Origin: Bispira polyomma
Taxonomy: Eukaryota
Length of the DNA: 64,000 bases
Reading direction: 5' to 3'
Assembly: GCA_965649765.1 (NCBI GenBank)
Contig: OZ287755.1
Coordinates: 63,860,001 to 63,924,000, forward strand
Shown here: piece after piece, positions 12,036-62,969 of the stretch
How positions within the stretch are numbered: position 1 is the stretch's first letter
How the letters are laid out: every line of letters begins with the position of its first letter
The notes under the pieces: generated by a model
Told to the model about the DNA's origin: nothing
What the model saw: the letters and a program-made list of their open reading frames with translations, nothing else
The model's database searches: none
Program-made: the position numbers and the translations under genes

Positions 12036-13481
12036 ATGGATAAACTTGAAAATTTCCGGCTTTGGAGTAATCCGTGCCACAAATACGTGGCTGAAATCAT
12101 CTTCTTTCTGTTCAAAGTGGCCGATGCTCTTCTAGAACCTTCCATGAGGCTCTACATCTATGAACTCACTGGCAGATTACATCGCAAGGACAACGAATCT
12201 GCTCTACAACAACACGCCGCCACCTACTTAATGGTCTACAAGATCCTTGTCAATCTACCTGCTTTGTTTCTTGGCTTATTCTGTGGGGCCTGGAGTGACA
12301 GGATAGGCAGAAAAGTGCCGGTAATGCTGTGCTGCTTTGGGACCATCATAGCATGCCTGTGCTTTTTGGGAAGCCTGACTTTGGAACAGTTCCCGCCATA
12401 TCAGTTGCCAATGATATTCATGGGCGCGGCTATTCGAGGATGCTTTGGCCGGTCCGCATTAATCAGTATGGCCCTCCATAGCTACATAGCTGATATGACC
12501 TCTGAGAAGTCAAGGACAAGGAGGTTGGCAAGGTTACTGGCCATGAACTATTTCGGGTACTTTGTTGGATCAGTATCCATGGGTTTGGTTATGAGCACGT
12601 CGACCTATGACAAGGTGTTTACCATTGTTATTTTGCTGAGTGCCATCTGCGTCTTTCTTGCAATGTACGGTATCTATGACAACACCACCGGAAATGATGA
12701 CACTGACTCCGAGTTCAGCTCCAATAGTTCTAGTCTCAGCTCTTGCCAGTTTGATGAAGCAGAGAATAAGCTGTTCCAGGAGCCCGTCGGTAAACTGGAG
12801 CAGCCGTTCCGGTTGAGTAATATTAAAGAAAGCTTCCAGATACTTGGGAACAAGAGAGACGGTAACCAGAGGTGCCACCTGCTGTTGCTGTTCTTCGTGA
12901 TTGTCATGACACAGTTGTGCAAATCTGGTGAGGTAGACATCACTGTACTTTTTGTGGAGAGGCAACCTCTTCACTGGCCAGAATCCGCCTACGGCTACCT
13001 TTTGGCGACGGACTACGCCTGTATGGGTGTCGCAGTGCTGACTGTCCTACCTTTACTCACCCGTGGTCTGAAGTGGCAAGACACCACCTTGATATTTACT
13101 GGCTTGGTGTTCAAGATCCTCCGGCTTTTTGTTCTGGCCTTTAGTAGTCATACCTGGATGGTCTATGTGGCCATTGTGTTGGGATGCCCCTTGTCCTTCA
13201 TTATATCCGGCGTAAAATCCATGATAAGCAAAGTGGTGTCCGACGATGAGATAGGCAAGACCTTCTCCATGTTATCTTGCGGAGAGACCATGTCTAATCT
13301 ACTGGGCTCCGTTATCTTCAACAACATCTATGCTGTGACAGCAGATACACTGTTCCCTGGGTTTATGTATGTCGTGGATATGGTGTTCCATTTTGTACTC
13401 TTGTTTTTGGCTTGTGCATTATTCCATGATCAAGAAGAACAAGCGAGGAAAGCTTCTGAAAAAGACAAACTGGTGAAATAA
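12036..13481 (+). CDS. SLC46-family MFS transporter (proton-coupled folate/heme transporter-like), intronless CDS, 481 aa
   Basis: About 12 hydrophobic segments; MFS/SLC46 loop motif GAWSDRIGRK; 'SYIAD..SEKSRTRR' and 'SMISKVVSDDEIGKTFS' segments typical of SLC46A1/A3; good start context AAAACCATGG; GC-richer than flanks. Confidence 0.9.
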   Translation: MDKLENFRLWSNPCHKYVAEIIFFLFKVADALLEPSMRLYIYELTGRLHRKDNESALQQHAATYLMVYKILVNLPALFLGLFCGAWSDRIGRKVPVMLCCFGTIIACLCFLGSLTLEQFPPYQLPMIFMGAAIRGCFGRSALISMALHSYIADMTSEKSRTRRLARLLAMNYFGYFVGSVSMGLVMSTSTYDKVFTIVILLSAICVFLAMYGIYDNTTGNDDTDSEFSSNSSSLSSCQFDEAENKLFQEPVGKLEQPFRLSNIKESFQILGNKRDGNQRCHLLLLFFVIVMTQLCKSGEVDITVLFVERQPLHWPESAYGYLLATDYACMGVAVLTVLPLLTRGLKWQDTTLIFTGLVFKILRLFVLAFSSHTWMVYVAIVLGCPLSFIISGVKSMISKVVSDDEIGKTFSMLSCGETMSNLLGSVIFNNIYAVTADTLFPGFMYVVDMVFHFVLLFLACALFHDQEEQARKASEKDKLVK

Positions 13482-33613: not shown

Positions 33614-34447
33614 ATCCTCAGATAACTAGTGAAATAAGCTCTTGAAAATTGTTACCTTTGTTGAAGGCTGTACTTTTACATAAGAACTCTATGCATCAAT
33701 GTCTTATACATATGTAAAAATATATAATTGAATGACCATTACAAATGACACCCATACCTCAAAACTTCCCACTTCTATTTAAATTAATCCTGCTTTATGC
33801 TGCAGTTTTATAGTCATTAGTAGTCGGTAGCATTGAGTGTCTTGGCCGGGTTATTAATGTTAAATGCAATGGAGATCTTGAAAATAATAAAGGACAGGAA
33901 TTATCTGAAGTACTATGCATGTCTATGTTACATTACAAATGATATAATGCTTTTGTGTCATTTCAGAAGGAAGCTATATATAGCCTTATCTAGAGAACTA
34001 ATGTTCTAAAAGAGTGATTTTTGTAAAGATACCTTTCAGACACAGTTAAATCTAAACATACTATCTCATGGTATTTTGGGTCTCAAAAGTATTAAACATT
34101 AAAAGTAATAAAATGTTAGTTGCTTCAGAGGTTTCCTTTCATACTTTAAGTATGGTCTATTTTTTACTTCAATGACGTTCAGAGAAATAGTAACTATGTC
34201 AAGTGAGGCTCTCTAATGCACAGGCAGGATGTCACAAATTTGTTCTGGAACTATCTAGGTCTTCTTGTTGTACAGTTCTATGACATGAGTGTTCAGTGGA
34301 AATTCAGAAATATCAGAGTATCGAATTGTCAGTAAAATTGGGCTAAAGATGTATGCTGCTATTTATATGGATGGAATATTCTAAGCCAGATTCATTGTAA
34401 ATTTAGTCTTCTACTGGCGTAAATGTGTTTTATTTCTACCGCTATCT

Positions 34448-34717
34448 GGGGCCGCGGTGGCCTAGTGGTTAGCAAGCATTGCGCTTCACAATCACTGGTC
34501 TCTCACCTCTGGGCAGCGTGAGTTCGAATCCCGTCGATGCCAATGTGGGAAAGGTGGTAGTTCCTTACTGTGGGCCGCTGGTTTCTCTGCAGAACCTTGA
34601 CTGACTGTATGCAGTGTTTCCTCCAGCGTTTCCAACTACCCGTCTCAATATAACCTACTAAAAGGTACTAGAGTGGACGCTAAATATCCAAATTCAAGCG
34701 TATTAAATTTAAGCGTA
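34448..34717 (+). mobile_element. tRNA-derived SINE family 1 with perfect TSD
   Basis: A box TGGCCTAGTGG, B box GAGTTCGAATCC; 14-bp TSD ttctaccgctatct at 34434-34447 and 34718-34731. Confidence 0.93.
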
Positions 34718-40336: not shown

Positions 40337-42427
40337 TCAGTTCCCAGGAACCAGAGCAAAGCTATGAGATTTTAATATGTAATACAGAAAAAGGCTGCGG
40401 TTCACAAGTTTATTAGTATACTAGCATGTTAGACAACTACTATATACAGTTAGTAAAGGGGCATAACGTGACCTTAAGTTAAGATAAGTTGGGGTAGCCC
40501 TAAGGTGAGTATAAGTTAAGAAAGTAAGGTTACCATACATTAAGTTCTTAAACTGGAGTTAAGCTGACCATAATCTTGAAGAGGAAAGAGGTAACCCTAA
40601 CTTGAATTTAAAAAGTTCAGTTTAAGAATTAAAGATTTAAATTAAAGTCGATTAATTAAGATTTTGAAGAGAGATTAGAATTTAAAAATTTTAATAAGTG
40701 ATGTGTAAGAGTACATAATGTACTCCCCAAAATAAGGTGACCTTATGCCCCAAGTACTGTGATTATTTATTTATTGACCTTTGGTATTCCTTTATTATTT
40801 AACAGATAAAATTTTAAAGTTTGAGGTGAGAAGAGATGTCCCAAACCACCAAGACCAAATCTTTCTAGGGGTAGTTTGTAGGGCCATAGCAAAGGAATCA
40901 GCCACTTGAGTGCCTACCTGAGCAGAATCGGTAATATATCGCCACACGCAATCCGACGTCCAGGTGCCATGCTGCTGAATGTCTTGCCAGCTTGATTTGC
41001 GTCCCGAGAAACACCTTGCCGAGGTTTTTTAACCACTTCACTATATCTTTGATTTACACCTCTGTAGTACTGACACATTTTTGTAGCGACATTCCTGTCT
41101 AATAACTCAAAATTTTTAAAACCTGTCCTGCAGAAATGTCTAATGCCTTTATTGTCGCCCACTGCCTTGCTGCAGTTGGCTCCTAATTTTTTGCCAATTT
41201 TTTCGGTTACAATTACTGCTTTTATGTGAACCCAGCACAAGTTTCACAAACATGCTGAAAAAAGGTATTTCCACTCTTGTGGCTGGAAGGAATTTTGCAT
41301 GTGCCTTCCTGATAAAACTTATAGTTGGCCGAGCCCTGGTTCCCCATCCCCATAGTCTTGTTACTACTACTGCCACTACGAGTACTATTATAGCTACTGC
41401 TACTACTAACGACCTGTCTCTGGGCATGAGCTCGCCTCAACCGGTCTAATTTTTTGACTTCCGTCCATTGAAGTTTGTCCATTTTCATCGTGGTCAACAC
41501 AACCGCATGGCAGGCTTTGGCTGCCTCCCAGGAAAAATCCTGAGAGTCCTCCATTAAGCCTGCCATATAATCTAACATGATTTCTTTAATTTCCAGCTTT
41601 TTCTCATCTTGAATTATTCTGGTAAAGCCACAGACCCACTGGCTAAGGGACAGATCATCATAACTCGGACGTGTTTTAAAATTGCCCAACAGAACATGAT
41701 TTTGGGGCCATTCGACTACCCTCTTAACAACATGTCGACCCCCCCCCTCTCTGGGACTTAATCTTACCTTTTTTCGGGTTTTCATTAATTTCCTTAAGCT
41801 CGACTAGCCGCTGCTCGACCTGGGTCTGTATGCAGGTATTTTTCTTCAAGAACTCGATGCTAGGAATCACATTATCATCACTTATAGTATTGACCTTTTC
41901 AACCGAAGCAGTCATTGGACTAGCGTTGCAAATCGAACTGTCCTGAGTTTTAGAAGAGTCCGTGCTCAGAGCCGCCTCCATGATCAAGACACGTTTGTCA
42001 AGTCGTTCCATCATCTGGCTCATACTTTCTAATTTCAACAGTATTTTACTAGAGACAACAGCCAGACTATAAGGAGCTTCAGACACTGCCCCTTCGATTT
42101 TGTCCTCAGAAGCGGACTCCTCATGTAACACTCGAGTACATTTGTTACCAACTGGCCTAGTGTGTTTTCCCATACATTTTGCACAACTATAGACTTTAAT
42201 TCGTGGCATTATGAGAGAGGTTACACTAAAAATCTAAAATTGTAAAAATAGTAAAATATAAAAATGTAAAACACAGAACATAAACTCTCTGCCAAACCCT
42301 TCAGGTTATTCTATTTTGAAGTTGTTCTTCTGCTGACGATTGATGAAAAGGAGGGAGATTTGAATTTTCCTGCCTTTTATAGTGAAACACAGCCAGGCGT
42401 GACGAACAGTCTGGTACCCCGAACTGA
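40337..42427 (-). mobile_element. DIRS-order retrotransposon, internally deleted (gag + YR end)
   Basis: Gag 42209-41222 (N-terminal CAKC..KH..PVGNKC, WPQNHV, LSLSQWVCGF, FSWEAAKACHAVVL, C-terminal C/H finger; frameshift in G-run at ~41740). YR end QQHGTWTSDCVWRYIT at ~40980-40870. RT/RH is missing. TATA-like CTATAAAAGG at 42382-42373. Confidence 0.88.
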
Positions 42428-44000
42428 ACCCACCAACGCTAGGGCGTTGCCTTGTAAACTTTTCACTGTTCTCATTATTGTGCTTTATGTGGGTGTTTGT
42501 TTGTATATCTTAAGAATTTATCCCTTATTACAGATTCTGGTTACAGTGATGACATACTTGCCTCCTATTTCTGCAGTCACAGGTTGGAATCTTAGCCCCT
42601 GACAACTATGTTGGAAATGTTGGCAGTAAAGTTTATGAATGATTATGGTTTGCAGAGCAGAAAACTTTGACCAACTACCTTGCTCTGATTTCCTTTACCA
42701 GTGCACTGCCTATCGTGATATGGCACACAAGACACGTTAAATTTTCTTGGAAAATTATGACATTACTTACAAATAACGACACAATCCCGATTAATGTTGA
42801 CATCACTTGGGCTATTTTTATAGTTTATATGTGTAAAGAGAGAAGACATATTAAGTGAGTTATAGGTGAATACATGACTTCAGCCCAGCGGGAAGGGAAG
42901 ACAAAAATATAGGTCAAGTTTTAGATAAAACCCATGAGTTTTTATTATTAGTTTTAGCCCTATAGATACGTACACAACAATCATTGTTATGACTTTTTAT
43001 TAGTGTTGTTCTTTAAAACTGTTACTACACCAAGTTAATGAGTTGCTTTTTACTATTTTTACTTTTTTACTACAATGATTACATCAACTATATACATTAC
43101 AGCTAGGAAGCGTTAACTCAACAACCGTTATAGGCAACGCTAGAACAATATACTTGCATGTTAAATTTATTACAAATTACTGTTCAGTCATTACGTTACT
43201 TACAGAGTTTTAACTGTAAGTCAGCAAGGTATAGTCTAAGTTTAGACTAGATAAAGTTGAAGTATAAAATAAAATAAAGGGCCCAACTATTAGGACAATA
43301 TTTTTTGAAAGGTTGTAGAAACCACACATGAGGCTTTAGGGCCAATGAGGCCCCACTACATCAAAATGTGTGAAAACCAAAATGTTTTGGACGAAAATCA
43401 ATTTTTGTTATAACCAATTTTAAAAAGAAAGAGCTTTAAAAGCTGTCACAGGCATTAACTTTTTTTTGTTTTAAATATAAACAAAGACATTCTTGTTCTG
43501 CAAAAAAACACTTGATGACGTGTTACTGTTCTGACTCTTGCACACGTCATAAGTACATGTACTCCTGGTGCATCCCAAATCAGATCAGCCCTGGATGGAA
43601 AGTGTGTCATATCAAAATACTTTATAGCAATAGGTATTAGTGAAGCAAGTTGAAACCCTCCCCCCAAAAAGACATATAAGAAAAGTGCCTTATATGTTTC
43701 AGAATTAGGATTAGACACCCTTAAATTGAAGTCTGATGGGAGCATTGATATGCACAGATTTTACTAGCATTTGCACTTTTTGACTATATTTTTTTTAGAT
43801 TATATGTAGACCAATCAAAAAAGGCCCAAAAATGAGACAACACTGAAATGTTATCACTAATTATTAAGGCAGCCCCCAAACCATTTTGAATTATATATTC
43901 TATATAGTAGACAATTGTTCTAGAGCAATGAGGTACTGTGAACTTCATGTAGATCATAAAGGCTATGTAGAATTGAAAGGTGAAGTCGTATGCATTCCTG

Positions 44001-44674
44001 GGCCCTGTAAATCAAAACCTTCGTTAAAATGCTAACTAACGATCGTGTAATGACAAAACTACTAGGAAGTAACTAAACAACTCTGTGGGTAAATGAAAAC
44101 CATTGGTTAGGTTTTCGTTAGTCTAGTCCAAACGAAGGGCTAACTAATGCGGTTGTATGGCATCATATGATGTGATTATAATATAAATGTAGAAATTATG
44201 CCTCTTTTAACAAACACCAAGATTTAAGATGTCTTACACAGAGTTATTGATTGATATAGTGTACCAAGAAGTTAAATTATCATATATCTAAAACTTTAAA
44301 ATATACGTAAAACACAATGAACTCATGTACATCTCCCAACAAATCTTATAAGAGATATCAAGACAAATATGTATGGGTGCATTTGCCATATAAATACGTG
44401 AACCAGTGTTAACTTTATTGATTATGACAGACTGTTTTAATAAAAAATATTTTTTTTCTGGCTTTTTACCATTGTTTTCATTGATAAATATATGGTCTAA
44501 CTAACAGCTAACGACAGGGTCTGAGTTGTTGTTCTATTATGGGGGTTTTATGAACAACGTTAACCAACAGTAAACTAACTAAGGCTTCTATTTGCACAAA
44601 AATTTGCGAACTAAGCCTCAACTAAGACCTAACAAAACATCGTCAGTGTAACGAATGCTTTGATTTATAGGCCC
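44001..44674. mobile_element. Non-autonomous DNA transposon (MITE), Harbinger-type with CWG target site
   Basis: 26-bp TIRs ggccctgtaaatcaaaaccttcgtta / gggcctataaatcaaagcattcgtta (22/26 match); CTG on both flanks (43998-44000, 44675-44677); no coding capacity. Confidence 0.8.
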
Positions 44675-44989
44675 CTGGTTTGTGGACGCATTGCAGAAGG
44701 TATACGCTGTAAGGCTTTTTTTTCCAGAAATATGTCACCGGTAGGACATGTGTACATTATGTTTATATATAGAAATTTGGTAGTAACATTTCACCATTGG
44801 TATATAACCGTTTACAATTTTTTAAATGGTTCACGTCTATCATGTCATAATCCTGATACATGTGCCACCTGGACAAAATATCGGTATATTTATTGTGTAC
44901 GCCTGGAATATGCTTTGCATTAACCTCTATATTAGACGCAGCTTTATAATACCAAGTAGTTCTTAGCTATTAGCCATTGGTCTTTAGCT

Positions 44990-46420
44990 TTGCTAGAAGT
45001 GAAAACATCAAGCACTGCAAAGTTATCACACTATATAATTACATTTGCATTGACCCATTTGTTGCACCATAACTTAAGGGCTATCAGCCCTTAAGTTGGC
45101 CGCCTCAAAATGCACTATAGATCTACAATTTTTAACATATTATTATGATACATTATTTTTAACGCGCTTTATTGATGCCAGGCATCTTCTAACGCGCCAC
45201 AGCAGAATCAGTGATCCAATCGTAAAGTCCATGGGCATAGCAAGGTCATAAGGGTAGGGGGGTTAACAGCTGGTTAATCAGCAAGCAACCAGACTCGGTA
45301 TTAACCCACCCCGTAGCACCTGGCGGCAAGGGGTGCAACTCCCTTTCACGCTTCACATGGTGAAGGGTGCCGTAGCCGTGATTTAGTAATATCTTTGGAG
45401 TAAACCATGCCATTATGATAACCACCCTTTTGTAGGGATGCGTCTATGCAAGCCACAATTTATTTTTTCAGTATTAATCTTAATAAACACTTCTAAAAAC
45501 TGGTTAAACCAGGAAATGTCTTCATAAAATATTTGTGGAAACTGAATATAATCCTTATTACGGGCTGAACGCAGAACTTGTAGAATACGATTAATAAAAA
45601 TCCTGGCGTGTCGTACACAACTATGAATATAGAGGAGTTTACCCATTAATTTTTGTAACTGGTTTCTAGTGGCTTGTGTACTTCATAATTTTTTTAACCG
45701 GAACAGTTAGGGTACCTGTGGCAGCATTGATAATAATAATACCTATACCGTTGATTTTGGCCACAGGCGGCTCCAGTTTTTCATGTTAGTAGGCAAACCT
45801 AATATTTATAATAATTTTTTCAGTGACATAAAATTACTATTAGCTTGATGAGGGGGACAAGCTCTAATAAAATCATAGTTCATAACCCATATATTACGTT
45901 TACATAAGACTGACGTCACCGCAAACGTGCCTAACTAGCACCCCGCCGCTCCCACCCAAAACCCAAACAGAAGACCAACATCAACATAAGTACTATATAC
46001 TACCTTGCCCTTGTAAACCAAGCCCTGGGTAATCATAGGGGTCTATTCTTAAATTTCTAAAGGCTCGTTGAAGATCTATTTTAAACAATTAGGTATCAGA
46101 ACCAAATATTTTTATTTTTTCAACCACTTGAGGCATGAATGGGAAAAATGTAATTTTCTTAAAAAGGGAGTCTTGAATAGGACCAATCATAGCTGTATGA
46201 CGTACTTCCACTTTAAAATATTCATTAACGCCCTTAGGGCAACATAAAGCTGATTTATGATTTACAATATTACTATTATATGAGAATGCTATAGAATCTA
46301 TGTTCATTGGGAACCCAAATTGAAGTTATATTCGGTTAGTAACTTTCTCCAAGCAGGAAGATTCAAACCTGAAGGGGCGTTAATATGTGCCCTTTATAAT
46401 TTCGAATACCATGCTTTTTT
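44990..46420 (-). mobile_element. DIRS-order RT/RNase H remnant
   Basis: QFGFP, NHKSA, EVRHTAMIGP, IDLQRAFRNLRIDP, MGKLLYIHSCVRHARIFINRILQVLR and I.CDNFAVL motifs; heavily frameshifted and interrupted by a LINE tail at ~45150-45270. Confidence 0.85.
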
Positions 46421-46840: not shown

Positions 46841-47108
46841 TTTTTTTTTCTTTTTTTGAATTTGAATATTTAACGTCCACTCTAGTACCTGTTTAGATTA
46901 TATTGGGACAAGTAGTTGGAAACGCTGGAGTAAACAGTGCATACAGTTGCTCAAGGTTCTGCACTGAAACCAGCGGCACACAGTAAGGAACTACCACCTT
47001 TCCCACATAGGCAGGGATTTGACAGGATTCGAACTCACGCCTCCCAGAGGTGAGAGACCAGTGATTGTGAAGTGCAATGCTTGCTAACCACTAGGCCACC
47101 ACAGCCCC
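46841..47108 (-). mobile_element. tRNA-derived SINE family 1 inserted in a LINE tail
   Basis: Same body, poly(A) tail (T-run 46841-46857), A/B boxes. Confidence 0.9.
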
Positions 47109-48354: not shown

Positions 48355-51300
48355 TCAGTCTTCAAGAAGCTCAATAGTATCATCTAAGATGTAGTTGATG
48401 TTTCCACCTTTGACCAGTTTGTTCCAACACCACGTTCTGAGATAGCAGGGATAGTTGCTACCATATAATCTTGATGACAACCTTGCCCAGAAGAGCTCTT
48501 GTCGCATGGTTTGTTTTTTAGTTCTCACCCCATCTTTAGCTTCTGGCCATTTAAGATATACTTTTGCATCCAATATTTGATGAACCAGCCCAGGCAAAGA
48601 ATTGGATGTAATATCGCCAAACTTGATGACAATCAAATCTTTATGTTTATTTATATGTTCTGTGTAGGCTCTCTTTAATTCAAAAGTAGGCCATGGTTTC
48701 TTCACAGAGTTCTCACTGATGACAACAATGTGGACTCTGCTCTGAGACATGTGTTTTACTATCTCATCGTCAATGTCTTCTCCAAGGATGAAGTCCCTAA
48801 ATATGAAAAAGACCCGAAATATAAGTATGTGTGTAAGCTTTGGTTTGATGCTGAACATAAATTAGAGAAAAAATTGTGTATAGTTTTAGTATTGGCATAA
48901 AGTTTTGGCAGAAATGATCAGCATCTTGAAAATACATGTTATATTTACTCATATACAATGACAATATTACGTTAAAACATATCAACTTAGGTAAATTTGT
49001 ATTTGCTACAGTTATACTTTGAATAATTTGGAACCAGTGTACTTTTTGGTAGTATGGTTTTGCTTAGAGGTAAATATATGCTGACTGGTTGTGTAATAAA
49101 CATTGAACATACTTTAAATCTGATTACGTACCACATAAATGTTTTAGCTATTGATCTTTAATACCGCTTAGATTGCAGCCATAATCAAAAATGATTGTGC
49201 AATTAAATATTATGAATTTAATATTTTGTGAAATTGCTTGCCAAATTACCTGTAATGAATACAAAGCCTGAAGTTATACTTGTCTTCGAGAGTCTTCATA
49301 AGTACATCATGAACCCAAAACCTGTCTTCACTGCAGTAAGCCACAAACACATCGTATTTAAATGTTGCCTTCACTGTGGAAGTACACCAGAGCTTCATGC
49401 GATAGTATGAGGTAAACAGGTAAAACCTATACTTCCACACCAAGGCAGTGCAGCAACAAACAGCAACAAGCAATGAAATTCCTGTCACTGTGATCAACAC
49501 CAAATTGGTATGTCTTGGATAACACAATGAATTCACATCTTCTAGATTTATTGTCTTAATGAACTGATATCCTCCACCACCGAAGTATGTTTGAAAACAT
49601 TCATAACTATCTTTTGCCTCCAATGACAGCTGAGCAGTATCCTGTATCTCTTGAAGAAATCTTATGGTTTCCACAGAGTCATCAGAGCAGTCACATGTAA
49701 AAGGGTTGCCAGTGAAGTCTAGTGTAACTTTGGTATTTGCTTTCTTTGTCAATAGGTCCCTAACATCTTGTGGAAAATGGTGGATTTCATTGTGTCTTAG
49801 ATTTACTTTTTCTATATGTATAAAGTCTTGCAAATGCCTGCTTAGATCTGATTCGTCCAAGTAGTTATTTTGAAGGTTCAAATCAAATAGACTATCACAA
49901 TGACTAAAATAACCCTCAGGGATTTGCTTTATATCTCCAGATGATATGTCTAAAAAATGAAGTTTGGTGTAGAAGCTACATAAGGATGTGCTATTTAGCT
50001 TAACCAGAGTAATTGTATTTCCTTGAAGTTTTAGTGTTTTTAGTTTAACAAAGTTGCCAAAATTATTCATTGGTATGGTTATATTATTTTGGTTAAAACT
50101 CAGGTCAATATAGGACACAGTCTTCAAACCTAAAATTTCAAGCTTCTGTATTAATTGCATCACTAATCTAAATTGTATCAGTTCTGAATTTTGAGCCAAT
50201 GATATCTTTTGAAGGTCATTGCTGGAAAAGCAGACTTTAAATTTATCTTGTAAACCAAAATGTCTTTGACGGGGCATCAAATTCATATCATCGAATATCA
50301 GCTCCTTTAAGTTTCTGCCAAAGGGTATTTTGATTGGTGGTGAGCATGCAAAATCAAGTAAAGAGGAGAGTTGTATACTTACAGGAATTAAGGAACAAGA
50401 AATAGATGCACAATCCAGTCGTTCACATAATGCTGATCTATTGTTAAGGAAAATGGCTTGTGCAATACTTTTAAAACATCGATCATGAGTAAAGGGATCC
50501 TGTGAAAAAACTTTTGTATCCCTTTTAGCCAACTGATGAAGTGATCTTCTGTGTTCTACCAAAGGCATATGTAAGCCTTGGTGTGAAATATTTATAATTT
50601 CAAGAATTGGATGCCATAATAGTTCCAATACAAATGTTATAAAAGCATTGTCAGAGTTTAATAAATTCCTAGAAACATTAAAAATCCTGATATTTGGTAG
50701 TATATCTGACACATTACCAGAAACTGACATAAGGTTATTGCCACACAGTTCCAGACACAGAAGACCTGATGTATTTACTGGATCAAGAAGTGTTCCAAGA
50801 TGGACATGTAATATGGCGACAGATGTCAACATTTGGAAATCATTAAGTATTAAGACTTTCAGAGGTTTGTTCTGCAAGGCTAGCATTATTGCACTAAAGT
50901 TTGCTTTGTGATAATGAAGTCCAGAAAAATCTAATAATTGTAAGTGAGGCATGTTTTGAACAATGCGAATAAGGTCCCCTTCATCACCATTGTAAAAAGC
51001 ATGAAAGTGAAACTCTCTTACATTTATTGGGAAAGTAGTGTTGTCATAGGCAAAAGCCAGTCTGTTCCTCTGTAGTTTTGTGTTCTGCACTATCCAAAGC
51101 TCAGACAGATTTTGCAATTTGTACAATTGATCCACATTTATCCGTTCAAAGATGTCATTTGGACTGGGCAGAATTGAAATGTGTAACTTTGTCACATCTT
51201 GGGTTGATAAATTGTCCAAGTATCCACTCATATACAACGGTTCCAGTTGTTTATAAGTCATATCAGGTCTACTCAATTCCCTTGGATAGCAATATGATTT

Positions 51301-51423
51301 TAAATCTTGAAGATCACTTCCTGAAGAAATCCTTGTATCTGCACAAATTATCTGCATGCTCAGCATTACATATAACAATATAGCGACAATGCTCATTGTA
51401 CTGGTGAAGTGACCACAAGACAT
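48355..51423 (-). CDS. Toll-like receptor (LRR ectodomain, LRR-CT, TM, TIR); exons 51423-49250 and 48796-48355 (~871 aa)
   Basis: Signal peptide; LxxLxLxxN repeats; LRR-CT NPFTCDC; TM (LVLITVTGISLLVAVCCCTALVW); TIR box 1 YDVFVAY. Phase-2 GT-AG intron 48797-49249 joins LCIHYR to DFILG. The second exon has YLKWP and box 3 LFWARL. Confidence 0.93.
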
Positions 51424-52392
51424 TTTGTGAATATAGAAAGTTAAAATTAGTTTTAATCAGCTTGTACTTATGATAGAAACAGATCTTTGAGTTTGTCACT
51501 GATGTAAGAAATATTGCGGTGTGTAACAAAAGTTCAGAAGCAAATGCTGACTGGTGTTTGTTATAAATACGCCATTCTAAAGATATTCATGAATATTAAA
51601 CTTATCAGCACATGCAAACTGTGTTGAATAAAAGTGTTTACTAAATCTCCATTATATAAAAAAACATATCTGAATGTAAGTTACAGTACTTGGGTTATTT
51701 TATTCTATTTATATATTTATTCTATCTCTCAAATTCCATTGGGGTGGTGTGATGCGAGTGTGAGATCATCTTAGTGTGATGAATGCCCATAAACACAAAA
51801 TATCTGAATATTCATGGGGCTTGAACAAATATGACATGTTGGAATCCCGCCAAGACAGAAATATATGACAGTGACAAATACACATTTTGATTATATTCTC
51901 TTGATACATTTTTCTGTAACCTTTCTCCAAGCTTCTGTAAATGGCAGTGTGGATATTATTTGAATAAAAGTAGAGTAGATGTGCATGAGGATTACAGTAC
52001 CCATTTCAAGATGAATCCACATAGGTCAATTGAAGAATACCCTGTCCCGTCAAACTCCAACATGAGGGTTAAAATATTTTTTGTTAGTCGCTACATTATT
52101 TACAGTCTGGTAAGTGATGGTTGTCATACTACAAATTCTATAACTTTACTTAGGAGACCATAAATTAATATTTGATTTAGGTTTACAATAAGTACATACA
52201 ATTTATGTTGCAGTAATCTTAAATAAATTAGGATAATACACTATTATCTAAGTTACATATTTATCAATAAAGATGCTTTAACTATAATTTTTAAAGCAAT
52301 AACTAAACAACTAACTAAGCATTAATTGTTTCAAAACACCAAACTCTTAGAAGTGTATAACAATAGGGTCTTTACTGTGATAATAAGTATAT

Positions 52393-53559: not shown

Positions 53560-54870
53560 CAGGTTTAAGGTAACCTTAATGTTTAAGGTTCAACAACCAA
53601 ACTGTAGGTAGGAGCTAGTAGGTTCTGCAACTTGTGGGTTACCTGTAGCCCAGACTCTTGGGTGTCTAAAATACTTCCAGAGTAATCAGATATCCATGTT
53701 CCATGTTTTTTGATTTCCTGCATGGACACGTTGGAGTTAAATGCCAATGTGGTGCCCGAGCATCTAAAAGGGTGGAAGGGGTGTATAGCAGGGTCAATGC
53801 CACTAGCTAGTAATACTTTCTTTATATGCCTTCTAAGCATTGCATCATTTAATGAGACTCACACCCCTTTGTTTTTTTACCTGGAATAGCTGATCATTAT
53901 CTAAGCCTGGTATTAACACTAGTATATTTCTAATAGCTTTTACTGGACACAGAGAAGAGGAGCCAAAGCAGGGAATTTTGATTGATTGAATTTTGTTTTG
54001 GAACTGCATGGTTTTTGTCCATTTCAGGAGAATAGGAAGACCAGGAGTAGCAAAGAAAAAATCCCCTTTGGTCAAGTGTATTGATGGATCGGTGGTGGAA
54101 GCATATAGAAGCATGTGGGACTATGTTTGAAATTCTGAAGAAGGCATACATGCCAGAAGATAGGAGGCCTTGTACATCAAGCCATGAACATACAGTCACA
54201 TGCGGAGACAATCTTTAATAAATCATTTACCTTGCACACCTCCCCTTTTCTGTATGGTGAGAGGCCTATTTATTAGCAAGGACCTCTGAAAAAGCCTAAT
54301 TATATCATCAGAAAATGCTTGTATTGATACACCATAAACTGTTAGACTGGACTTCACTGCCGCCATGTAGTTGGCAACTGTATGAGAGAGGTCTTTTTGA
54401 AGACTAAAAACTCCATAAAGGTCACCAACAGTGGCACTATTACATTTTTGACAGAACATGATACAAAACATGCAAAACCTATAAATATTTTATACATCAC
54501 CATGTATGCCCTATGTGTGGAAAGCCTGAAGACAGTGGCTAGCCTGTCCCTAGCACCAGTTGTGAAGGCTCTAAGAAGGTGACTCTTACCTAAAATGACA
54601 TTTATAGTTTAGATTGACCAATCTAATTCGAATATACCATACATGTTCCCAACACACTTTTGTATTATGTCAACTTGTGCCTTACTACCCACCCATGTGG
54701 ATAAGGCGTTGGCTACTGTATTTTCTATACCATGTACATGCACGACATTGAGGTCAATATTGTATTTAGCAGTGTGGAGTAATACATTCCTTGCACAGGC
54801 TGCCAGGTATTTGTCACTGGTTCTACCTGTGTTCAACACAGACACCACTGACATGTTCAGTGAGGTTGCG
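53560..54870 (-). mobile_element. DIRS-order element 3' part (RNase H end + tyrosine recombinase pseudogene)
   Basis: HVHGIENTVANALS...LDWSI* followed by YR fragments (NYMAAVKS, FFRISNIVP, LKWTKTMQ, LCPVKA, FHPFRCSGTTLAF, HGTWISD). Confidence 0.9.
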
Positions 54871-57800
54871 AGAACACCAGCTAGTAGCAAACTCGTTCAG
54901 TGACTGGGGGTGAAGGATGTCTAGCCGAACTACTTTTGTAGAAGGCTGTAGTTGTCGCAGTACATTTTTGGCACCAACTGGGACGGACGTATAATTTTAT
55001 TGGTAACACCGGATTTGTCTTCCAGAGAGATTTTATCTATTTGTGTCAGTCAGAGATTTTATTGGTAACATCGGATTTGTGTTCCAAAAATGTGGTGTAG
55101 AAAACGTTTACAGAGAGGATCATATACTAGTGTTCCAGTTGGTGCCCAGTAATTTTTCGAAAGACTTGTGTTGTTTCGCTTCTAATTTTGACTGTGGTCA
55201 GCAGTTATGTGGAACTTCAAGAAACCTAAAGGATTAAGTGCTGGTCGGATAGTAGCGATTAGAGCCAGCAAAGTGACTGTCCCAGAAACGGCTAGCATGC
55301 TAGGGGAGAATCTAAGAGAACCAAGCAGAAAGGGACCAACGACAGCTTGTTCAGACTGTCAGGTGGAGCACAGGGTCGAGGTCCGATAGACATTTCAATG
55401 CCAACGTCTGTGGCAGCGTCAAGCAGTCAGTTTCCTAGTCGTACGGGAACGAGAAGTGTAGTCAAGGCGAGACTCGCAGCTGAGGCTGATAACAGGCTTC
55501 CTGTGTCAGAGCTAGCTGGTCAGATGAATTCACAGCAACGACTTGGCAGTGATGGGCATCAGATGTTAGATGTCGGTCAACAGCTTACCAAGGGCAGTGG
55601 TGATTCTGACGTCAGATGTACTTCAGCAGTTGGGCCAGTTGACGCAGGCGGTGCTTTCTTTGAAGGATGTTAACTCGCAGCTGATGAAACGGGTGGATAC
55701 TATTGAATCAAGTACAAGTTCGGATGTTGTGGCTGAGTCTGGTGACAGGGCAGCAGTCCCAGTAGTATCCGTTAACCCCTCCGAAGATTTCTCCCTCACT
55801 GGGTGGGGCGAAATCGTCACTTGAACAGTTACAAACTTTTGGATCCGGTTTGAGTGGTGTTAGTTCGGATCTGGCTGTGCAGCAGGAAGTTCAGAGGAGA
55901 CTACTGGTGATGGAGGACCAGGAGGATCAAGTACTGGACTTTGGTATGTCAAATTTTAAAGCTAGTAATTGAAAAGTTACGTCTGTTCAGAGTTTTAGGG
56001 GAAACCCCATGTACGAGGTTGGTGTATTGGCCTCATGATCTGTGTTTCATTGGAAGTGACTGTGAACGAGTAATGTATGATAAGCTTACATTACTACAGT
56101 GGTCATTAGGTTTCAATAGATGTATTCTTAAAGAATCTGATTTGCAAGTACAGCAAAACATGCTTAAGTATAGTACTGAGTTAATGCAAAATGCCATGGA
56201 TCTCGGTTGGTCAGTAGCAAAAGGGGCTCACAGGGTCGTTATGTGCAGTATGAAGGACGGTTTGTTGACCTGGGCTGAACGAGATGAAGTGAACGAGATT
56301 AGGCGGCAGTTTGCCCAGAGACAAGTAGTGGCTAATGCCAAGTCGGGTTATGTTAAGTCAGCTTCCGGTTTCTCCAATAACAGGGAAGTCTGTACCAAAT
56401 TTCAGTCGGGCACTTGTGAATCTAGTGTAGACCACAAAGTAGGCAATGTTTGGCTCAGGCACGTTTGTGCTTATTGTATGAATACAGTGAATCGACCATA
56501 TCCTCATAAGGAAATAGACTGTCAAAAGAAAAAAGCAAAAAATGGCGGCACTACCTCTCGGCAGTAAATAAGGCAGTAAAAGTTAACAATTATAAGAATG
56601 TTGAGAGGCCTAGTCAAGTCACTGAAAATATTGTTTCACCACCGGCAGTACAGCCGAGTTGTAATGTTAATGTAGGTAAAAGTGTTCATAATGTTAGAAA
56701 TAAGGTTAGCTGTAAAGACAATTGGGACAATGATAGCTTTAAACAGTCCAAACAGGACATTAAAACTATTTTGCAAGGCAGTAGTACTGATAAGTTTATA
56801 GACATTGAAGTGAAGTTAGCCAGTAATGGCTGTGCATGTTGTTTAAAGTGACAGCAAGACATGTGTACTTGCATAAGATGTATATATTGTCTGGTTAAAC
56901 AATCCCTTATGGGGAGGGGGCATGATAGTTTGCTTGAAGGTGAGCAGAAACCCATGTTAAAACAAGTATTTACTGTCAAAAATACTAGTTGTCTGGATTT
57001 TCATCGGGTTATGTCAGGAACATGTGTTAAATATACACAAAATGGCTGGATTTCAGCAAGTCCAGTATTTCCTTTCGCTAGCAAATCTCAAATTCACATC
57101 ACTGCGAGACAGTCTGCGCAGAAGCCTGTAAATAGTTTGGGCGGAAATAATCACACTCACTTGAGTTTAGGCGGCAATACTCCCACTAAATTCTGTCGGA
57201 ACGGTTGGGGAATGCACTTTAATCCTCGGAAACTTGGTTTTTTACTTTGTCCTTCCGAGGGAGGCACACGCACCACTTTTTGCGACACGTGTAGTATTGT
57301 TGTGTCTGGAGTGTTCCATAGTTTGGCGCGTGGCGTTGTTTGTCACGCATTAATACATTTTCTCTTATATGCTACACCAAGTCTGGTGAGGTGGTTGGTG
57401 CGTGTCACTGGTGTGCACGCAGGTATATGTCTGACTAGGCGGCAATGCTCTGTCAGCACTGCTAGAGTGCATACCATATTTGGACACACACTGAAGTTGT
57501 ATAATACAAATGAGTTTAGCAACTTTATTAGTAGAATTTGTGTACACATGTATGGCTCATGTACGAGCCTGGTTTATTTTCTGTATTTTCTATGACAGCA
57601 GTCTTATCTCTAAAGCAATAACCACAGGTCTTATCAGTATTTCAAATACAGACTTAACTGGCAGTTGTATTCATAGCAAGGTTTGACCATGTATATTTGG
57701 CCCTGTTATTGGACAGTTTACACTTGGTTGTATTAAAGCAGTGTGTCATAGTCATGTTACCCAAAGTCTGTGTAGTATTATTAAATATGTATATGGCAGT

Positions 57801-60800
57801 CTGTGTAGTATTATTCAGTACCTATATGGCATTTCCATCCTTGTTATTAAATGTTGTACTTATGCGTGTACTTATGTGTATATGTGGCAATGGTTACACT
57901 TGTGTAAGTTCACTCTTGTTCGCACAGCACAGGTTGTACTTGACAGGATGTACAGTTTAGTTGGTCTGCACATTTGGTGGTTTTTGTATTGGTTCTATAC
58001 ATACGTTGGGTATCTTATTGTTCACATTTGTCGGCATACAGAAAGTCATACTGTATACAGTAATGTCTCACCAGGTACTCATATAGACAGTAGTCAAGAC
58101 CTTTCTTTATATTATAATGGTCATTATATAAAATGTACATATCCTGGACAATTTAAATTTGGTTACTTACCAGCAGGTAGTCAGTTGATGCCAACTAATG
58201 GCAGTTGCAATTCAATTACTTGTGATTCAGCAGTACAGCTGAACAAAGTTGTTAATAGTTATGGTGGTTGTTTTAATTTTCTGTATCCACGTATTCCAGT
58301 TCAGTCTACACTGAACATATCGGTTTGGAGAAAGTTATTGGACAATTATTATGACAAACAGTTAGTGGAATTATTGGAATTTGGTTTTCCTGTTGATATG
58401 CAAGACCGGTCTGTTTTCACTCATCAAGACAGTAACCACCCTTTAGCAGGTTCTTACCCGGATCATATTGCACATTACTTAAACACTGAACATAAACATG
58501 GTGCTATTGAAGGTCCTCATGAGACCCCCCCTTGGATAATATGCATATTTCACCTATGCTCACTCGACATAAGCCTAATTCCCTCAATCAATGGGTGATA
58601 ATTGACTTGTCTTGGCCTAGAGAACATTCTGTGAATGCTAGTGTAGCTAAAGGTGTGTTTCTAAATACTAAGTTTGAATTGACTTATCCAACAGTGGATC
58701 ATATGGTAGATTACATACAACAGTGTGGATCAGATTGTTACTTGTTTAAAGTGGACCTCCAGCGGGCGTTCAGAAACTTAAGAGTTGACCCTCATGATTA
58801 TCACTTACTAGGGCTATATTGGCAACAGCAGTATTATATTGATAAAGCGGTCCTCTTTGGTTTAAGATATGGATCTCATTATTGCCGGAGAATGACTGAC
58901 AGTATTTGCCTTATTATACAAACACAGGGATATGGTGTTTTTAGCTACAATTAAGACATCATAGGTATCGATGCCTCTTATGATGAGGCTATGGCAGCGT
59001 ACACTTTCTTACTAAAACTGCTGGCAGATTTGGGCCTTCCAGTTAGTCCGGCTAAGTTGGAGCCCCCTAGTAAATGTATTACTTGCTTAGGACTTAACAT
59101 TGATGTTGAAAAGGGTATAAGTTTGCCACCAGATAAATTACTTGAGATCACTGATTTGTGTGTTAATTGGTCTAGTAGAAAGTTTGCAACCAAAAATCAA
59201 ATTCAGAGCATTGCTGGTAAGCTATTGTATATTAGTAAGTGTGTGAGGCCTGCTAGATTATTCATCAATAGAATCTTACAAGCGCTTCGCACTTGCCCAG
59301 AAAGAGGCAGGTTTAAGATAAGCAGTTCTTTCAGAGCAGATGTCAGGTGGTTTGTACAATTTCTAGCACAATTTAATGGTGTTGTATTGTATGATAAGCC
59401 ACTTCAGCATGGTAACATTGTATATGTAGATGCTAGTTTAACTGGACTTGGGGCAGTATATAAAGACACTGGTTATCATGTAGAGTTGTCCAATCTCAAG
59501 GATCCACCTAAACGTATTGTTCACTTAAAAATGCTTAATGTGTTCACTGCTCTCACTGTGTGGTTGTCTTCATTCAAAGGTTCTCATGTAATTTTGTATT
59601 GTGACAACTTGGATGTAGTCAATGTACGAAATTTTAACAAGGGTAAAGATGCTTATCTTTATACAGTAGCTCGGCACATTTGGTTACTCACGGCGTCACA
59701 TGACATTACTTTGCAGGTTAAACATGTGGCGGGTGTGGATAACTTGGGGGCGGATCTGTTATCTAGGTACTCAGACTCAGCAAAACGGTCACAATTTGAT
59801 GCCAGTTTTCAGCAGTTGCAACTGCTCCAGGTTCCCTGTCATGCCACCTCCCTCACTTGGGACATTTAATGATTGTTATTAATGATTGTGTATATGTTTG
59901 TTCTTACAGGTTCCACCCAGTTAAAACAATTACTGTCTGTGGCTTCAGCCCGGGCTAAAATGGCGTATCAGTCCAAAACTCGGGCTTTGTATTATAGGAC
60001 TATGTCCACCTTTCTTAAGTTTTGTGTTACCAATTCTGTTTCACATCTTCACTACTCACTTAGTGTGGTTCTGGCTTACATTGAGCACTTTGTTTAAATT
60101 GGGCTCACTTATTCCTCCATTTAAAATCATTTGTCAGCCTTAAAGCATTATTTCAGAAGGTTTGAATTGGATATGGAAATTTTTAGTCATGTTCATGTAA
60201 TCATGCTTCTCAAGGCTATCAACAACAATGTCACTAGACATGTTAAGGTAAAAGACATTTTTGGGGTACAAGATTTAATAAATATTTGTGCACAATCTGA
60301 CAGGTTCACCCATGGTATAGTTTTTAAGGCTGTGTTCTTAGTGGCTTTCTTTGGCCTGTTTAGAATAAGTAAACCAGATTTGGTAATACAGGTTAGATGG
60401 ACTAAAACCATGCAAAGTAGACAGACTAGTGTGTTGTTACAGTCACCTTTTATTGCCGGTTCTCCGCTTTGTCCAACACAAGCGGTTGAATGAATGTTTG
60501 ATTGCTACCCGGCTTCTCCAGATGCACTACTTTTTGTATTACCTGGCTCACAAAGTCAGTACAAAATTTTGACGGATGTCAAAGTGTGTTAGGTGTTAAA
60601 GGACATTTTAGGAGGCCTTGGCCTCAATATTCATACTCTTGGTTTTCAGGCGTTCAGGGGCTTCCCTTCTGTTTCAAAATAATGTTCCCTTGCAGTGTCT
60701 TCAGGCACATGGGACTTGGACCTCAGATGCAGTTTGGGCTTATTTGCAAACTGGGGCCAATCTTTCCACCATCCCTCAAGCTCTTCAGGACATTAAAAAT

Positions 60801-60990
60801 CTAGTAAGTATTCCAACTCTCTTCTTACTTACTTGTTTGGCTTGGGGTGGTTATTATTCTAGTATTCACTTCAAATATCACATAAGCTGTAATGGTGGTA
60901 GCCATTGGCTAATACTTGTGTGTGGTATAACCACAAACTGTCAGTGTAGTGACATAGTGGCTACCATTTATGTCATTCTATAAAAGAATG
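54870..60990 (+). mobile_element. Near full-length decayed DIRS-order retrotransposon (gag, RT/RNase H, YR)
   Basis: Gag ~55400-56567 (YWPHD, LTLLQWSLGF, LGWSVAKGAH, CCCH/CxxC fingers); RT/RH ~58150-59869 (LEFGFP, KVDLQRAFRNL, YVDAS, YCDN, HVAGVDNLGADLLSR); YR ~59910-60800 (FFGLFRIS, WTKT, FRRSGA, HGTWTSDAVWAY). The YxDD motif is disrupted by a stop at ~58952. No methyltransferase ORF is visible. Confidence 0.93.
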
Positions 60991-61639
60991 CATGGAAAAT
61001 AAAAAAAATATACAAAGAGATATTGTGTTATATATTTGTGTTACCTCAAGGTCAAAAATGGATTGGTCACTGATTACATGTAATGACAATCCTAGAGTTT
61101 TCCCAATACTTTCTCCACGTTCTGAGAACTATTACTATGTTTATCATTTATAACTTGACTATTCCTATATCGTCCATCTACATAGACACTGTTAGTGCAT
61201 ATACACAGTTATTGAACCTAACCCCACCCCTTTCAGACGGCTATCCAACTTAATTATGGCAGTGTTGGATTTTTTGTAGTTGAATATGGTAACCTGTTAA
61301 ACTCGGCTACTAAACAAATCTTCATCTAGTAGCTACTAAACAAATCTTCATCGCCTTGGGTTAGCAGCCCTCTTTACGGTTGTTTACATTCGATTTAGGA
61401 ATATTCTAGAAGGTTCACAGCATTTTGCTATGTTTCGCAGGGAACCTAGTATGGATTGTAGTTTGAATTTTGTTGGGGGTTTTTGGTTCTTTTACTGTGT
61501 GCATGTTTTGACTATTAGTAGTAGTTTTTTATGTGGGATGACAGTGTCTTGTTAGTGTCAATTAGTGTTCCAAGGCACACACATTGAGTGCTGGGAGGTA
61601 CCAGTTTTTTCTCACTTATTTTGAGACCCAACTCTTAGA

Positions 61640-62969
61640 TTAATTGATTTGGAAATTTGTATGTTGTACTTTGCTGGAAAGGCCACAGCCAATAAGATCA
61701 TCACTATATTTGATCATTCTTTTATTGTGTATCTTACACTTGCACTTAGGCGTTGGAATATTTGGCTTCCATGTGGGCCAAAGGGAAGACATGTATCAAC
61801 ATGGAAACCATCCCAGTACAAGTCTAGTAAGTGATGATCCCAAAGATCCATTTTTATATGCCTGAATTCTCTGGAACTGTCTATTTGATCTTCCGGCCAG
61901 CTCATGTCTATTATGATCCGTCTATTGACACAGTTTGGTGTCTCCCGGGTCATGAAGGGTGAACAATGCAAGTTGGTTATTGGATTTTTTGAGAATGGAC
62001 CTACTGCGTTGTAGTGATTTTATTCCTCCAGGTAGGTTTTTATAAGACTATGGTATTGTTCAGCCGAATTGTGATTGTTATAATCACAGTTTAATGGTGT
62101 TGCACGATTAAAATATAAGGGAAATCCGAATTTTATACATTGCAATAATTGGGTGAGATATTTCTCCCACTGATCAATGTGTAGTTGGAATCAGACTGGA
62201 CCAGGGGTTCGACGGAAGCAAAAATTCACGTCCCGAATACAGTTTGTCAAAAATCTGATTCCAGGATACCGCAAACCAAATAAACCCAATTACAGCCAAA
62301 CGAATAGACCCTCCAGAACAGGAAGTACTCGAAACCAAACCAAAACAACATGAGCAGTTTGCCTAAATACAACTAAAATGTACTAAAAACTCACAAATAC
62401 CGGCATTGACTTTTGCACTCGGCCGGCACATAAAATGGTCTCCAACAGACGATATCAGCAGTGTTGACACAGCCCTAAACTGGACACCATGCATTTTAAA
62501 AGTTAAATTTACCTGTACTGCTGAGAAATTTATGTAATGCAATTGGATCTGTGCTACCGTTTTCAGTGATGTCCTCATGATCCGGATACACTGAGAATTC
62601 TGTAAGTGAAATGAAGCCAAAACCTTGTTTATTCTGTTGCATGCACTTCTCATATAATTCTGAACCTTGGGCCAACTCAGATGGGCTCTTTTTGTTAAGG
62701 TTGCCCATAAATTCTAGTTCATCATAACTATCTTCCATACCATTGTGGTGTAAGTCGTTCGCCTTATTTACATTGCATTGTGTTGTGTTTTCTATACAGA
62801 CCTGTGGCTGTTCAATTATGTTTTGACTTTCTAATTCATGCACACTTTTATATAAATCGGTTTGTGTACCACAACTAGTTTCACATGAAACTTTACCATT
62901 TTCAATAATACTATGTTGATTTTCTCCCACTATTTCTAGGTTTCTACCTTCACTACTTGTCGTTCCCAT
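61640..62969 (-). mobile_element. DIRS-order RT N-terminal remnant
   Basis: GFGFISL...LHKFLSSTGKFNF, IKFGFP, HCSPFMTRETPN..RRIIIDMSWPE and DTCLPFG motifs. Confidence 0.85.

Follow-up and report, generated by a model that had tools for sequence, protein, structure and literature searches.

Ngaro-type tyrosine-recombinase (YR) retrotransposons are defined, in the accessible portions of three sources, by the gene order gag, RT/RNase H and YR, by split direct repeats and by the absence of a methyltransferase (PMC4157794, PMC3783388, PMC7192593). An SGNH hydrolase ORF is optional and is described, as far as the accessible accounts go, in some Ngaro-like members only. The YR ORF is given as in frame or frameshifted in the accessible text of PMC3783388, and in such descriptions the YR of Ngaro-like elements is an ORF that is separate, in frame, frameshifted or overlapping. 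The elements considered here share the ORF order, the split direct repeats and the lack of a methyltransferase with the Ngaro-like group, whereas their YR is proposed to be a second exon. PAT-like and DIRS-like elements likewise share a YR integrase, an RT/RNase H and Gag Cys/His motifs with the elements studied here, and split direct repeats occur in PAT-like elements too; both groups, however, carry a methyltransferase behind RNase H, according to the accessible text of PMC4157794, and DIRS-like elements have inverted terminal repeats as well as an internal complementary region (ICR) rather than direct split repeats.

A gag-to-YR splice was not described in the literature that we searched, a scope outside of which lay two key reviews, supplements and Repbase. 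Retroviral env and foamy-virus pol are made from spliced subgenomic mRNA, neither of them as a Gag fusion, and retroviral integrase is delivered via Gag-Pol, which arises by recoding and contains the whole of Gag. The proposal made here resembles these viral systems in having a spliced RNA for the 3′ gene and an enzyme that would reach the particle as a Gag fusion; Gag-Pol, however, uses recoding and all of Gag, whereas splicing here would give half of Gag joined to a tyrosine recombinase. In plant Ty1/Copia elements, a conserved alternative splice sets the protein ratio (Oberlin et al. 2017, PMC5580714), but in the accessible part of that account its product is a short Gag-only RNA, whereas here half of Gag would be joined to the integrating enzyme and RT skipped.

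A nested Ngaro-type element in Bispira polyomma

The window, a stretch of 64,000 nucleotides from Bispira polyomma (GenBank assembly GCA_965649765.1, contig OZ287755.1, positions 63,860,001 to 63,924,000), harbors a decayed Ngaro-type YR retrotransposon on the + strand, nested in an older YR element (Table 1). The insertion lies within the RNase H of this minus element, which is broken off at 61073 and continues at 54857. Stops and frame breaks are found in all of gag, ORF2 and YR of the window copy, which is therefore unable to make a Gag–YR fusion itself.

Table 1. Window coordinates of the + element and of other elements; a slash marks a predicted splice position
Feature	Position	Strand	Remarks
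+ element copy	54859..61072	+	3′ end approximate; A2–B2 repeats of siblings absent here
A1 split direct repeat	54859..55001	+	recurs in sibling copies as A2 behind B1
gag 5′ part, predicted first coding exon	55207..55943	+	broken in window copy; start approximate
Phase-1 splice donor TTG/GTATGT within Gly codon	55941..55949	+	intron from 55944
gag remainder, excised by the proposed splice	55944..56567	+	helical core (KSG...WP), with Cys/His fingers at the C terminus
ORF2	56510..59869	+	RT and RNase H behind an N-terminal part that varies; methyltransferase absent; broken; overlap with gag end
T-rich spacer, 40 nt	59870..59909	+	terminates in phase-1 acceptor TTACAG
YR coding region, predicted second exon	59910..60805	+	lacks its own start codon; broken; end approximate
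B1 repeat	60845..61072	+	AATAAA at 60998
Older YR element, 3′ part	53601..54857	-	end of RNase H, with its stop at 54609; acceptor AG at 54591-54590, phase 1; YR remnant
Older YR element, RT part	61073..62250	-	far side of + element insertion
gag of third, internally deleted element	41225..42233	-	phase-1 donor AAG/GTAAGA at 41768/41767

The gag, RT/RNase H and YR ORFs occur in that order on one strand. Pfam analysis found RVT_1, with Phage_int_SAM above the cut-off and Phage_integrase at 26.3 bits versus a cut-off of 27.1; gag is without a Pfam match and is named from its position and Cys/His motifs. Sibling copies carry split direct repeats in the arrangement A1...B1 A2 B2, the internal repeats lying 3′ of YR, and L092 of family B shows the arrangement as well (A, 1353-1497 = 7744-7888; B, 7547-7750 = 8000-8203). 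There is no Dam or methyltransferase match in three ORF2s, ORF2 terminates 29 to 36 residues past the ADxLSR motif of RNase H in 17 of 17, and intact copies have no fourth ORF of at least 120 aa between YR and B1 that could correspond to a hydrolase. With repeats that are direct and split and with no methyltransferase, the label "DIRS-like" of the preliminary description gives way to "Ngaro-type," which fits better. The elements are best classed as Ngaro-type YR retrotransposons on their structural features, and structure alone may mislead in the classification of YR elements, as noted in the accessible text of PMC4157794.

A common layout had also been suggested for the minus element and a second gag. 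The minus-element acceptor is present as described, at a distance of 19 nt past the RT stop rather than about 18, and the donor AAAG/GTAAGA is present in the second gag; however, the two belong to different elements, this gag lying downstream of the YR of the minus element, and the reading of both as one layout was rejected.

Conservation of the donor and acceptor sites

Both splice sites proposed for the + element were found where they had been placed. The acceptor reads ...GTTCTTACAG/GTTCC at 59909/59910, 40 nt past the RT/RNase H stop (TAA 59867-59869) and in phase 1 relative to the YR frame; the donor, on re-reading of the sequence, is TTTG/GTATGT at 55943/55944, within a Gly codon of the gag frame and likewise in phase 1. 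The predicted intron in the window copy is 3966 nt long. Of the 29 sibling loci of the window family, 24 extend over the acceptor, with YAG retained in 23, and 20 extend over the donor, with GT retained in 19.

We grouped YR sequences from the Bispira polyomma genome and from metagenome contigs at 65% identity into 37 clusters. A phase-1 YAG lies 1 to 12 codons ahead of the YR anchor in 36 of these 37, whereas two sets of control windows had one in 43% (n = 148) and 27% (n = 246), and 32 of the 37 clusters have their best-scoring AG in phase 1 (p = 3e-11 versus 1/3; related families are not fully independent, and p-values here and below therefore overstate significance). The acceptor profile is TTNYAG, with T at −6 in 34/36 and at −5 in 33/36, and AG is depleted upstream of it (3 seen versus 33 expected). 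The junction falls within a codon for G (20), D (11), E (3) or A (2), of which the first base alone is thus fixed. The single exception, L176, has no AG in the interval searched; outside these counts are L109, L161, L167 and L177, which gave no match to the YR N terminus, and L116 and L178, in which the match begins too late.

On the donor side, the Gly that follows the Q..V..RL helix is encoded as G/GTA in 19 of 20 gag families versus 33 of 339 other Gly codons (p = 1e-18), among donor-bearing families whose median YR identity is 30%. After this Gly comes K, N, T, M or I, with a codon that begins with A every time; position −2, the third base of the preceding codon, is A in 15/19 donors versus 82/339 in the background, and +5 is G in only 9/19. 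In gag proteins from other assemblies, Gly is followed by an A-codable residue in 31 of 38 versus 224 of 529, 11 of the 49 proteins being without the motif and hence outside the 38. L118 and L139 lack the donor Gly, and in L161 the first Gly is GGC, yet the Gly three codons further reads G/GTA. Four loci that failed the helix pattern (L136 and L141) or were not picked up (L138 and L146) stand outside the donor counts though each shows CAG/GTA at the corresponding Gly; L132, from which no gag motif was recovered, is outside them as well. Because the donor Gly is invariant at the protein level too, part of its conservation may be structural.

At donor and acceptor, the amino acids vary and the splice bases stay constant. 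Conservation of the GT and AG, which had been questioned as a possible product of codon constraint, exceeds it, as seen in G/GTA with varying residues, in the TTNYAG profile and in the AG depletion. Conservation of site and phase had been predicted beforehand and held on the later-fetched loci L130-L149 (acceptor 20/20, donor 14/15) and on the metagenome loci L150-L179 (25/26 and 4/5, respectively). Both sites are present in 4/4 metagenome contigs that have the gag helix and their own YR start, and both are in phase 1 wherever both are readable. The splice signals are common to many distant families across the clade.

The Gag N-terminal region and a proposed Gag–YR fusion

The preliminary description had interpreted the sites as a splice that joins the Gag N-terminal region in frame to YR, a reading that the comparison of sequences supports. 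Overall, the best explanation, which we consider likely, is that three proteins come from one transcription unit, a spliced GagN–YR among them. Unspliced RNA would serve as the genome and as message for Gag, and RT/RNase H would be reached from gag by recoding, either by a −1 shift at A AAA AAC or by readthrough of a stop. In part of the RNA, the phase-1 donor, which lies in a linker that follows the Gag helix, would be spliced to the phase-1 acceptor just past the RT stop, removing 2.6 to 4.4 kb and joining 118 to 370 Gag N-terminal codons in frame to a recombinase of about 325 codons. The recombinase would thereby be provided with a start codon and with the coiled coil of Gag, via which GagN–YR would probably coassemble with Gag and Gag–RT, so that YR would travel with the cDNA to be integrated. 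That the splice takes place is, from the sequence signals, very probable, and we infer that the helix donor pairs with the YR acceptor; recruitment of YR by the coiled coil is a step that we favor with less assurance. The clade-wide form of the model, in which, over many genomes, there would be no free-standing YR gene, the YR "ORF" of present annotations would be a second exon and GagN–YR would be loaded onto the particle or RNP via a trimeric Gag coiled coil common to Gag, Gag–RT and GagN–YR, has in our view slightly better than even chances.

The retained part of Gag had been described as a zinc-finger/coiled-coil region. In the window family, the coiled coil is indeed predicted, between a basic N terminus and the Q..V..RL helix, but the zinc finger is absent; its pattern is matched in 11 of 19 donor-bearing family representatives and is lacking in the intact families B and C. 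In the Gag model, predicted domains are separated by a linker of low confidence (pLDDT <50 at 189-200), and the donor Gly, at about 193, falls within it. For residues 86-196 in three copies, a parallel coiled coil is predicted, with a score of 0.55 versus 0.01 for the best control, agreement between runs in at least 79% of contacts and a pLDDT of at least 51; the mark for this score was calibrated on two copies of microbial proteins, where 21 of 30 solved homo-pairs attained it, as against 0 of 23 single chains. The predicted trimer supports possible binding and is the sole basis for the proposed tethering of YR to the particle. In the search for a retroviral or LTR-type capsid fold in the Gag core, Foldseek gave no match at E ≤ 0.001, and the best VIA Z was 4.9 (rmsd 3.5, 85 aligned), obtained with a whole-length model that has a pTM of 0.35.

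Alternatively, the splice may be real but supply only a start codon, perhaps with a nuclear-localisation or zinc-finger segment, the fusion then not coassembling with Gag. The part of Gag upstream of the donor is poorly conserved in sequence and length, as such a minimal role would allow, and the lack of the zinc-finger pattern in families B and C points the same way, as do further phase-1 donors nearer the gag start in some families, which would yield shorter fusions. The conserved donor, however, lies behind the coiled coil and helix and not near the ATG in 19/20 families, and the retained part is predicted to trimerise; we regard this alternative as rather unlikely.

Proposed pairing of the sites and possible other routes into the recombinase

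Further searches concerned spliced products. Exact patterns for intron-less genomic copies gave 0 matches for the window family and family B, and no GagN–YR fusion protein is present among the protein-search matches (98; 49; 3; best 150 of 27,548), of which six unusually long ones were examined in full; most protein matches derive from contigs of assemblies, in which a spliced product would go uncalled. Three sequencing runs of unrecorded kind behave as DNA, with a unique-flank depth of about 13-24 in two and about 74-86 in the third and an element depth about 30-fold above the unique flanks; the absence of the L092 2342-6520 joint among 15 of 56 joints listed for these DNA-like runs has no bearing on splicing.

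If the sites are used but mainly not with each other, an upstream donor, host exons or a trans-spliced leader would be joined to the acceptor on its 5′ side, and the donor would be joined to another acceptor, for example one before RT. Two coral gene models that fuse a TNF-receptor-like N terminus to a YR-like C terminus speak for this, but the agreement in phase of the two sites argues for their pairing and makes this reading improbable. RT, moreover, is served by separate putative recoding signals, which are A AAA AAC in part of the families and one in-frame stop in others, and an acceptor upstream of the RT core is without clear phase bias in 17 long ORF2s. For this clade, a three-acceptor model with a second acceptor ahead of RT was rejected, weakly, on the same 17 ORF2s in 14 windows, in which the highest phase counts were 11/17 at +60 and 8/17 at −60.

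The remaining question is how else YR might be entered. An in-frame ATG is not conserved: 22 of 37 clusters are without a usable one, and 15 have one at or ahead of the beginning of YR. That of family C overlaps the RT stop, and in the intact family B, the first Met is about 95 codons inside YR. An overlapping ORF leading into YR finds no general support, the RT-to-YR frame not being fixed (of 23, 3 are in frame 0, 7 in +1 and 13 in +2) and the spacer varying from 0 to 122 nt, but RT and YR do share one open frame in P0148 (a cluster of 45), P0293 and L125. Translation of unspliced YR, by readthrough or frameshifting from RT or by re-initiation, with the sites as by-products of codon use and AT-rich spacers, would accord with these open frames and ATGs and with the published in-frame or frameshifted YR, but is very improbable given the differing frames and spacers, the clusters that lack an ATG, and TTNYAG, AG depletion and G/GTA with variable residues far above the same-element background. 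The sequences offer no common route into YR other than the proposed splice.

YR is drawn, in the accessible accounts, as a third ORF with no translation route given, and many families here are without a YR start codon. The exact predicted junctions make the question of YR expression testable. If true, the clade-wide model would explain, in a way not described before, how the integrase of YR retrotransposons is expressed and delivered, and the protein for biochemistry would be one of about 440 to 700 aa, not 325. A nuclear-export problem would then be predicted for the unspliced RNA, as in retroviruses, and a strong acceptor ahead of YR would make host genes possible recipients of recombinase exons from these elements.

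Ngaro-type elements in the window

The plus-strand element is a decayed copy in which stops and frame breaks interrupt gag, ORF2 and the tyrosine recombinase gene (YR). Its relatives are numerous in the same 1.04-Gb genome (75–94% identity), and sibling copies carry split direct repeats in the order A1...B1 A2 B2. It interrupts the RNase H of an older YR element on the minus strand, whose match at protein level ends at residue 172 and picks up at residue 173 across the insertion edges (54857/54859 and 61072/61073). The donor claimed in the preliminary description is present as TTTG/GTATGT at 55943/55944, cutting a gag Gly codon after base 1, as is the claimed acceptor, GTTCTTACAG/GTTCC at 59909/59910, which is in phase 1 to the YR frame and lies 40 nt past the RT/RNase H stop. 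The minus-strand element has its acceptor AG at 54591–54590 as described, but 19 nt past its RT stop rather than ~18 nt, and the gag with a donor at 41768/41767, which had been read as its partner, is part of a third element with an internal deletion. Among 29 sibling loci, the GT is kept in 19 of the 20 covering the donor and the YAG in 23 of the 24 covering the acceptor; because these loci are siblings, this retention shows inheritance, not selection.

Features of the window (positions in window coordinates)
Feature	Position	Strand	Remarks
Plus-strand Ngaro-type element	54859 to about 61072	+	
Decayed YR-element pieces	40867–46325	-	RT/RH 46325–44766, YR 43788–43325
gag, then directly a YR end	42233–41225 (gag), 41028–40867 (YR end)	-	part of the 40867–46325 pieces
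Lone YR end, near 29.8 kb	29636–29902	-	
Host-type ORF	49246–51456	-	736-aa leucine-rich-repeat frame
Host-type ORF	12027–13481	+	484-aa MFS transporter frame
~260-nt dispersed repeat copies	31658–31920, 34447–34697, 46842–47108	both orientations	88–93% alike

The order of a YR and then a further gag recurs in the metagenome loci L153 and L161, and three YR matches on C8 are spaced 5502 nt apart; this order and spacing suggest tandem arrays of YR elements.

Protein searches revealed younger families with open frames in the same genome, and the locus set comprises 60 loci fetched from this genome and 30 from metagenome contigs. In the intact family B (L090–L102), the RT of which is ~66% identical to that of the window element, gag encodes 434 aa, ORF2 ~1190 aa and YR ~322 aa, with the first Met of YR ~95 codons in. 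The Pfam matches comprise RVT_1 and phage-integrase domains, with none to a methyltransferase, and in all 17 long ORF2s the frame ends 29–36 residues past the RNase H motif. The elements are of Ngaro type by the structural definitions in PMC4157794, PMC3783388 and PMC7192593. In L092 (2914–4700) and its relatives, ORF2 begins with a long, variable, Cys/Val-rich part with tandem repeats, which has no Pfam match and is uninterrupted in intact copies (1173, 1191 and 1209 aa).

Conservation of the acceptor and donor

Donor and acceptor sites are conserved in position and in phase; this arrangement of sites is genuine and strongly conserved, in an element class that is itself already known. We anchored YR starts by profile and clustered elements at 65% identity, which gave 37 clusters, 17 of them from the element's own genome; six loci without a YR N-terminal match were left out of the acceptor test. 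A phase-1 YAG lies 1–12 codons ahead of the YR anchor in 36 of 37 clusters, compared with control rates of 43% in 148 windows inside YR and 27% in 246 inside RT. When AGs are ranked with a simple pyrimidine rule, the top one is in phase 1 in 32 of 37 clusters (p = 3e-11 versus one third) and in 21 of 24 at 50% clustering. T is found at -6 in 34 of 36 acceptors and at -5 in 33 of 36, positions that were not part of site selection; T content is 59% in the acceptor tract versus 31% upstream, and AG is depleted in the 16 bases upstream of the acceptor (3 seen versus 33 expected). Since the residue spanning the junction varies (Gly in 20, Asp in 11, Glu in 3, Ala in 2), it is the base G that is conserved, not an amino acid. 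In L121, and by eye likewise in L146, the acceptor AG is supplied by the RT stop codon TAG itself.

The donor was read as the first Gly at least 6 residues behind the Q..V...L helix in every gag found. In 19 of 20 families (16 from the own genome, four from metagenome contigs) this Gly is encoded by GGT with A as the next base, the 339 background Gly codons of the same frames including 103 GGT and 33 GGT+A. The preceding codon has A as third base in 15 of 19 cases versus 82 of 339, the Gly is followed by Lys, Asn, Thr, Met or Ile, and the donor profile is (A/C)AG/GTAA, 9 of 19 sites having G at +5. Gag proteins of other assemblies agree at the protein level (31 of 38 versus 224 of 529). The conservation proposed in the preliminary description as a check recurred in loci retrieved once the prediction had been settled, both in the same genome (L130–L149; acceptor 20/20, donor 14/15) and in metagenome contigs (L150–L179; acceptor 25/26, donor 4/5). 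Exceptions to the site rule are L176, L118, L139 and L161, in the last of which a Gly three codons on fits. Median YR identity among donor families is 30%; the p-values are inflated by relatedness, and judged from these sequences the signal nonetheless spans families at ~30% identity.

Other routes into YR and RT

A conserved in-frame ATG leading into YR, which had been named as evidence against a splice, is absent before or at the YR start in 22 of 37 clusters, and in the 15 with such an ATG its positions are scattered. A common frameshift or readthrough into YR is likewise disfavored, because both the YR frame relative to RT (n = 23; 0 in 3, +1 in 7, +2 in 13) and the RT–YR spacer vary (0–122 nt; for decayed copies, a few of the assigned RT stops may be wrong). 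A single open RT–YR frame is found as an exception in the database proteins P0148 and P0293 and in L125. P0148 (cluster of 45) has a hydrophobic “...FCVAVVD” ahead of YR that resembles the translated acceptor of other families.

The clade seems to have changed its recoding route to RT from family to family: A AAA AAC lies ahead of the gag stop with ORF2 in the -1 frame in L092, L119, L122, L126, L134 and L171, a lone TAG/TGA separates gag from an in-frame ORF2 in L104, L105, L125, L151, L155 and L160, and ORF2 is in the +1 frame in L117, L124 and L128. No clear acceptor was found ahead of the RT core in 17 long ORF2s, and a three-acceptor layout was not seen.

The predicted GagN-YR protein

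Where readable, the predicted exon 1 comprises 118–370 codons and the predicted intron 2.6–4.4 kb. The AlphaFold model of the intact Gag of L117 (pLDDT 66, pTM 0.35), for which a fold search gave no match to a known fold, runs from a small N-terminal finger through a long helix (96–129), a helix (164–192), a low-confidence linker (189–200) and a helical core to C-terminal Cys/His fingers; the donor Gly falls inside the linker, so the splice would keep whole predicted domains. For three copies of Gag residues 86–196, the predicted assembly is a parallel coiled coil spanning 95–124, with a score of 0.55 where the best control had 0.01, contacts agreeing to 79% or more and a pLDDT of 51 or higher. 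In the calibration, on two copies of microbial proteins rather than the three copies modelled here, 21 of 30 solved homo-pairs attained the score mark and none of 23 single chains did. This model supports a putative self-association of the Gag N terminus. The zinc finger previously ascribed to this region is represented by a pattern in 11 of the 19 representatives that carry the donor, several of the pattern-less ones being shortened by stops, but not in the window family.

The three sequencing runs examined behave as DNA. Exact patterns for family B and the window family returned no processed (intron-less) genomic copy, and no GagN-YR fusion is among the database matches listed, each a weak negative. 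Two 624-aa NCBI gene models from two Montipora corals (P0149, P0151), which combine a TNF-receptor-like N terminus and a hydrophobic segment with a YR-like domain at the C terminus, possibly represent a host gene with a captured recombinase exon.

The portion of the literature searched holds no description of a gag-to-YR splice. A spliced gag RNA of plant Copia is described in PMC5580714. Spliced ESTs from certain YR elements may have been noted by the Poulter group, and an earlier notice of the splice is therefore possible.

Splicing very probably occurs in these elements, and we infer that the donor pairs with the YR acceptor; the moderate donor strength would fit a need to retain unspliced RNA. 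Most likely, unspliced RNA would yield Gag and, via recoding, Gag-RT, and would also be the reverse-transcription template, and partial splicing would yield GagN-YR. Through the fusion YR would acquire a start codon together with the coiled coil common to Gag, Gag-RT and GagN-YR; recruitment of YR through this coiled coil is a reasonably likely outcome, by which GagN-YR would travel with the cDNA to integration.
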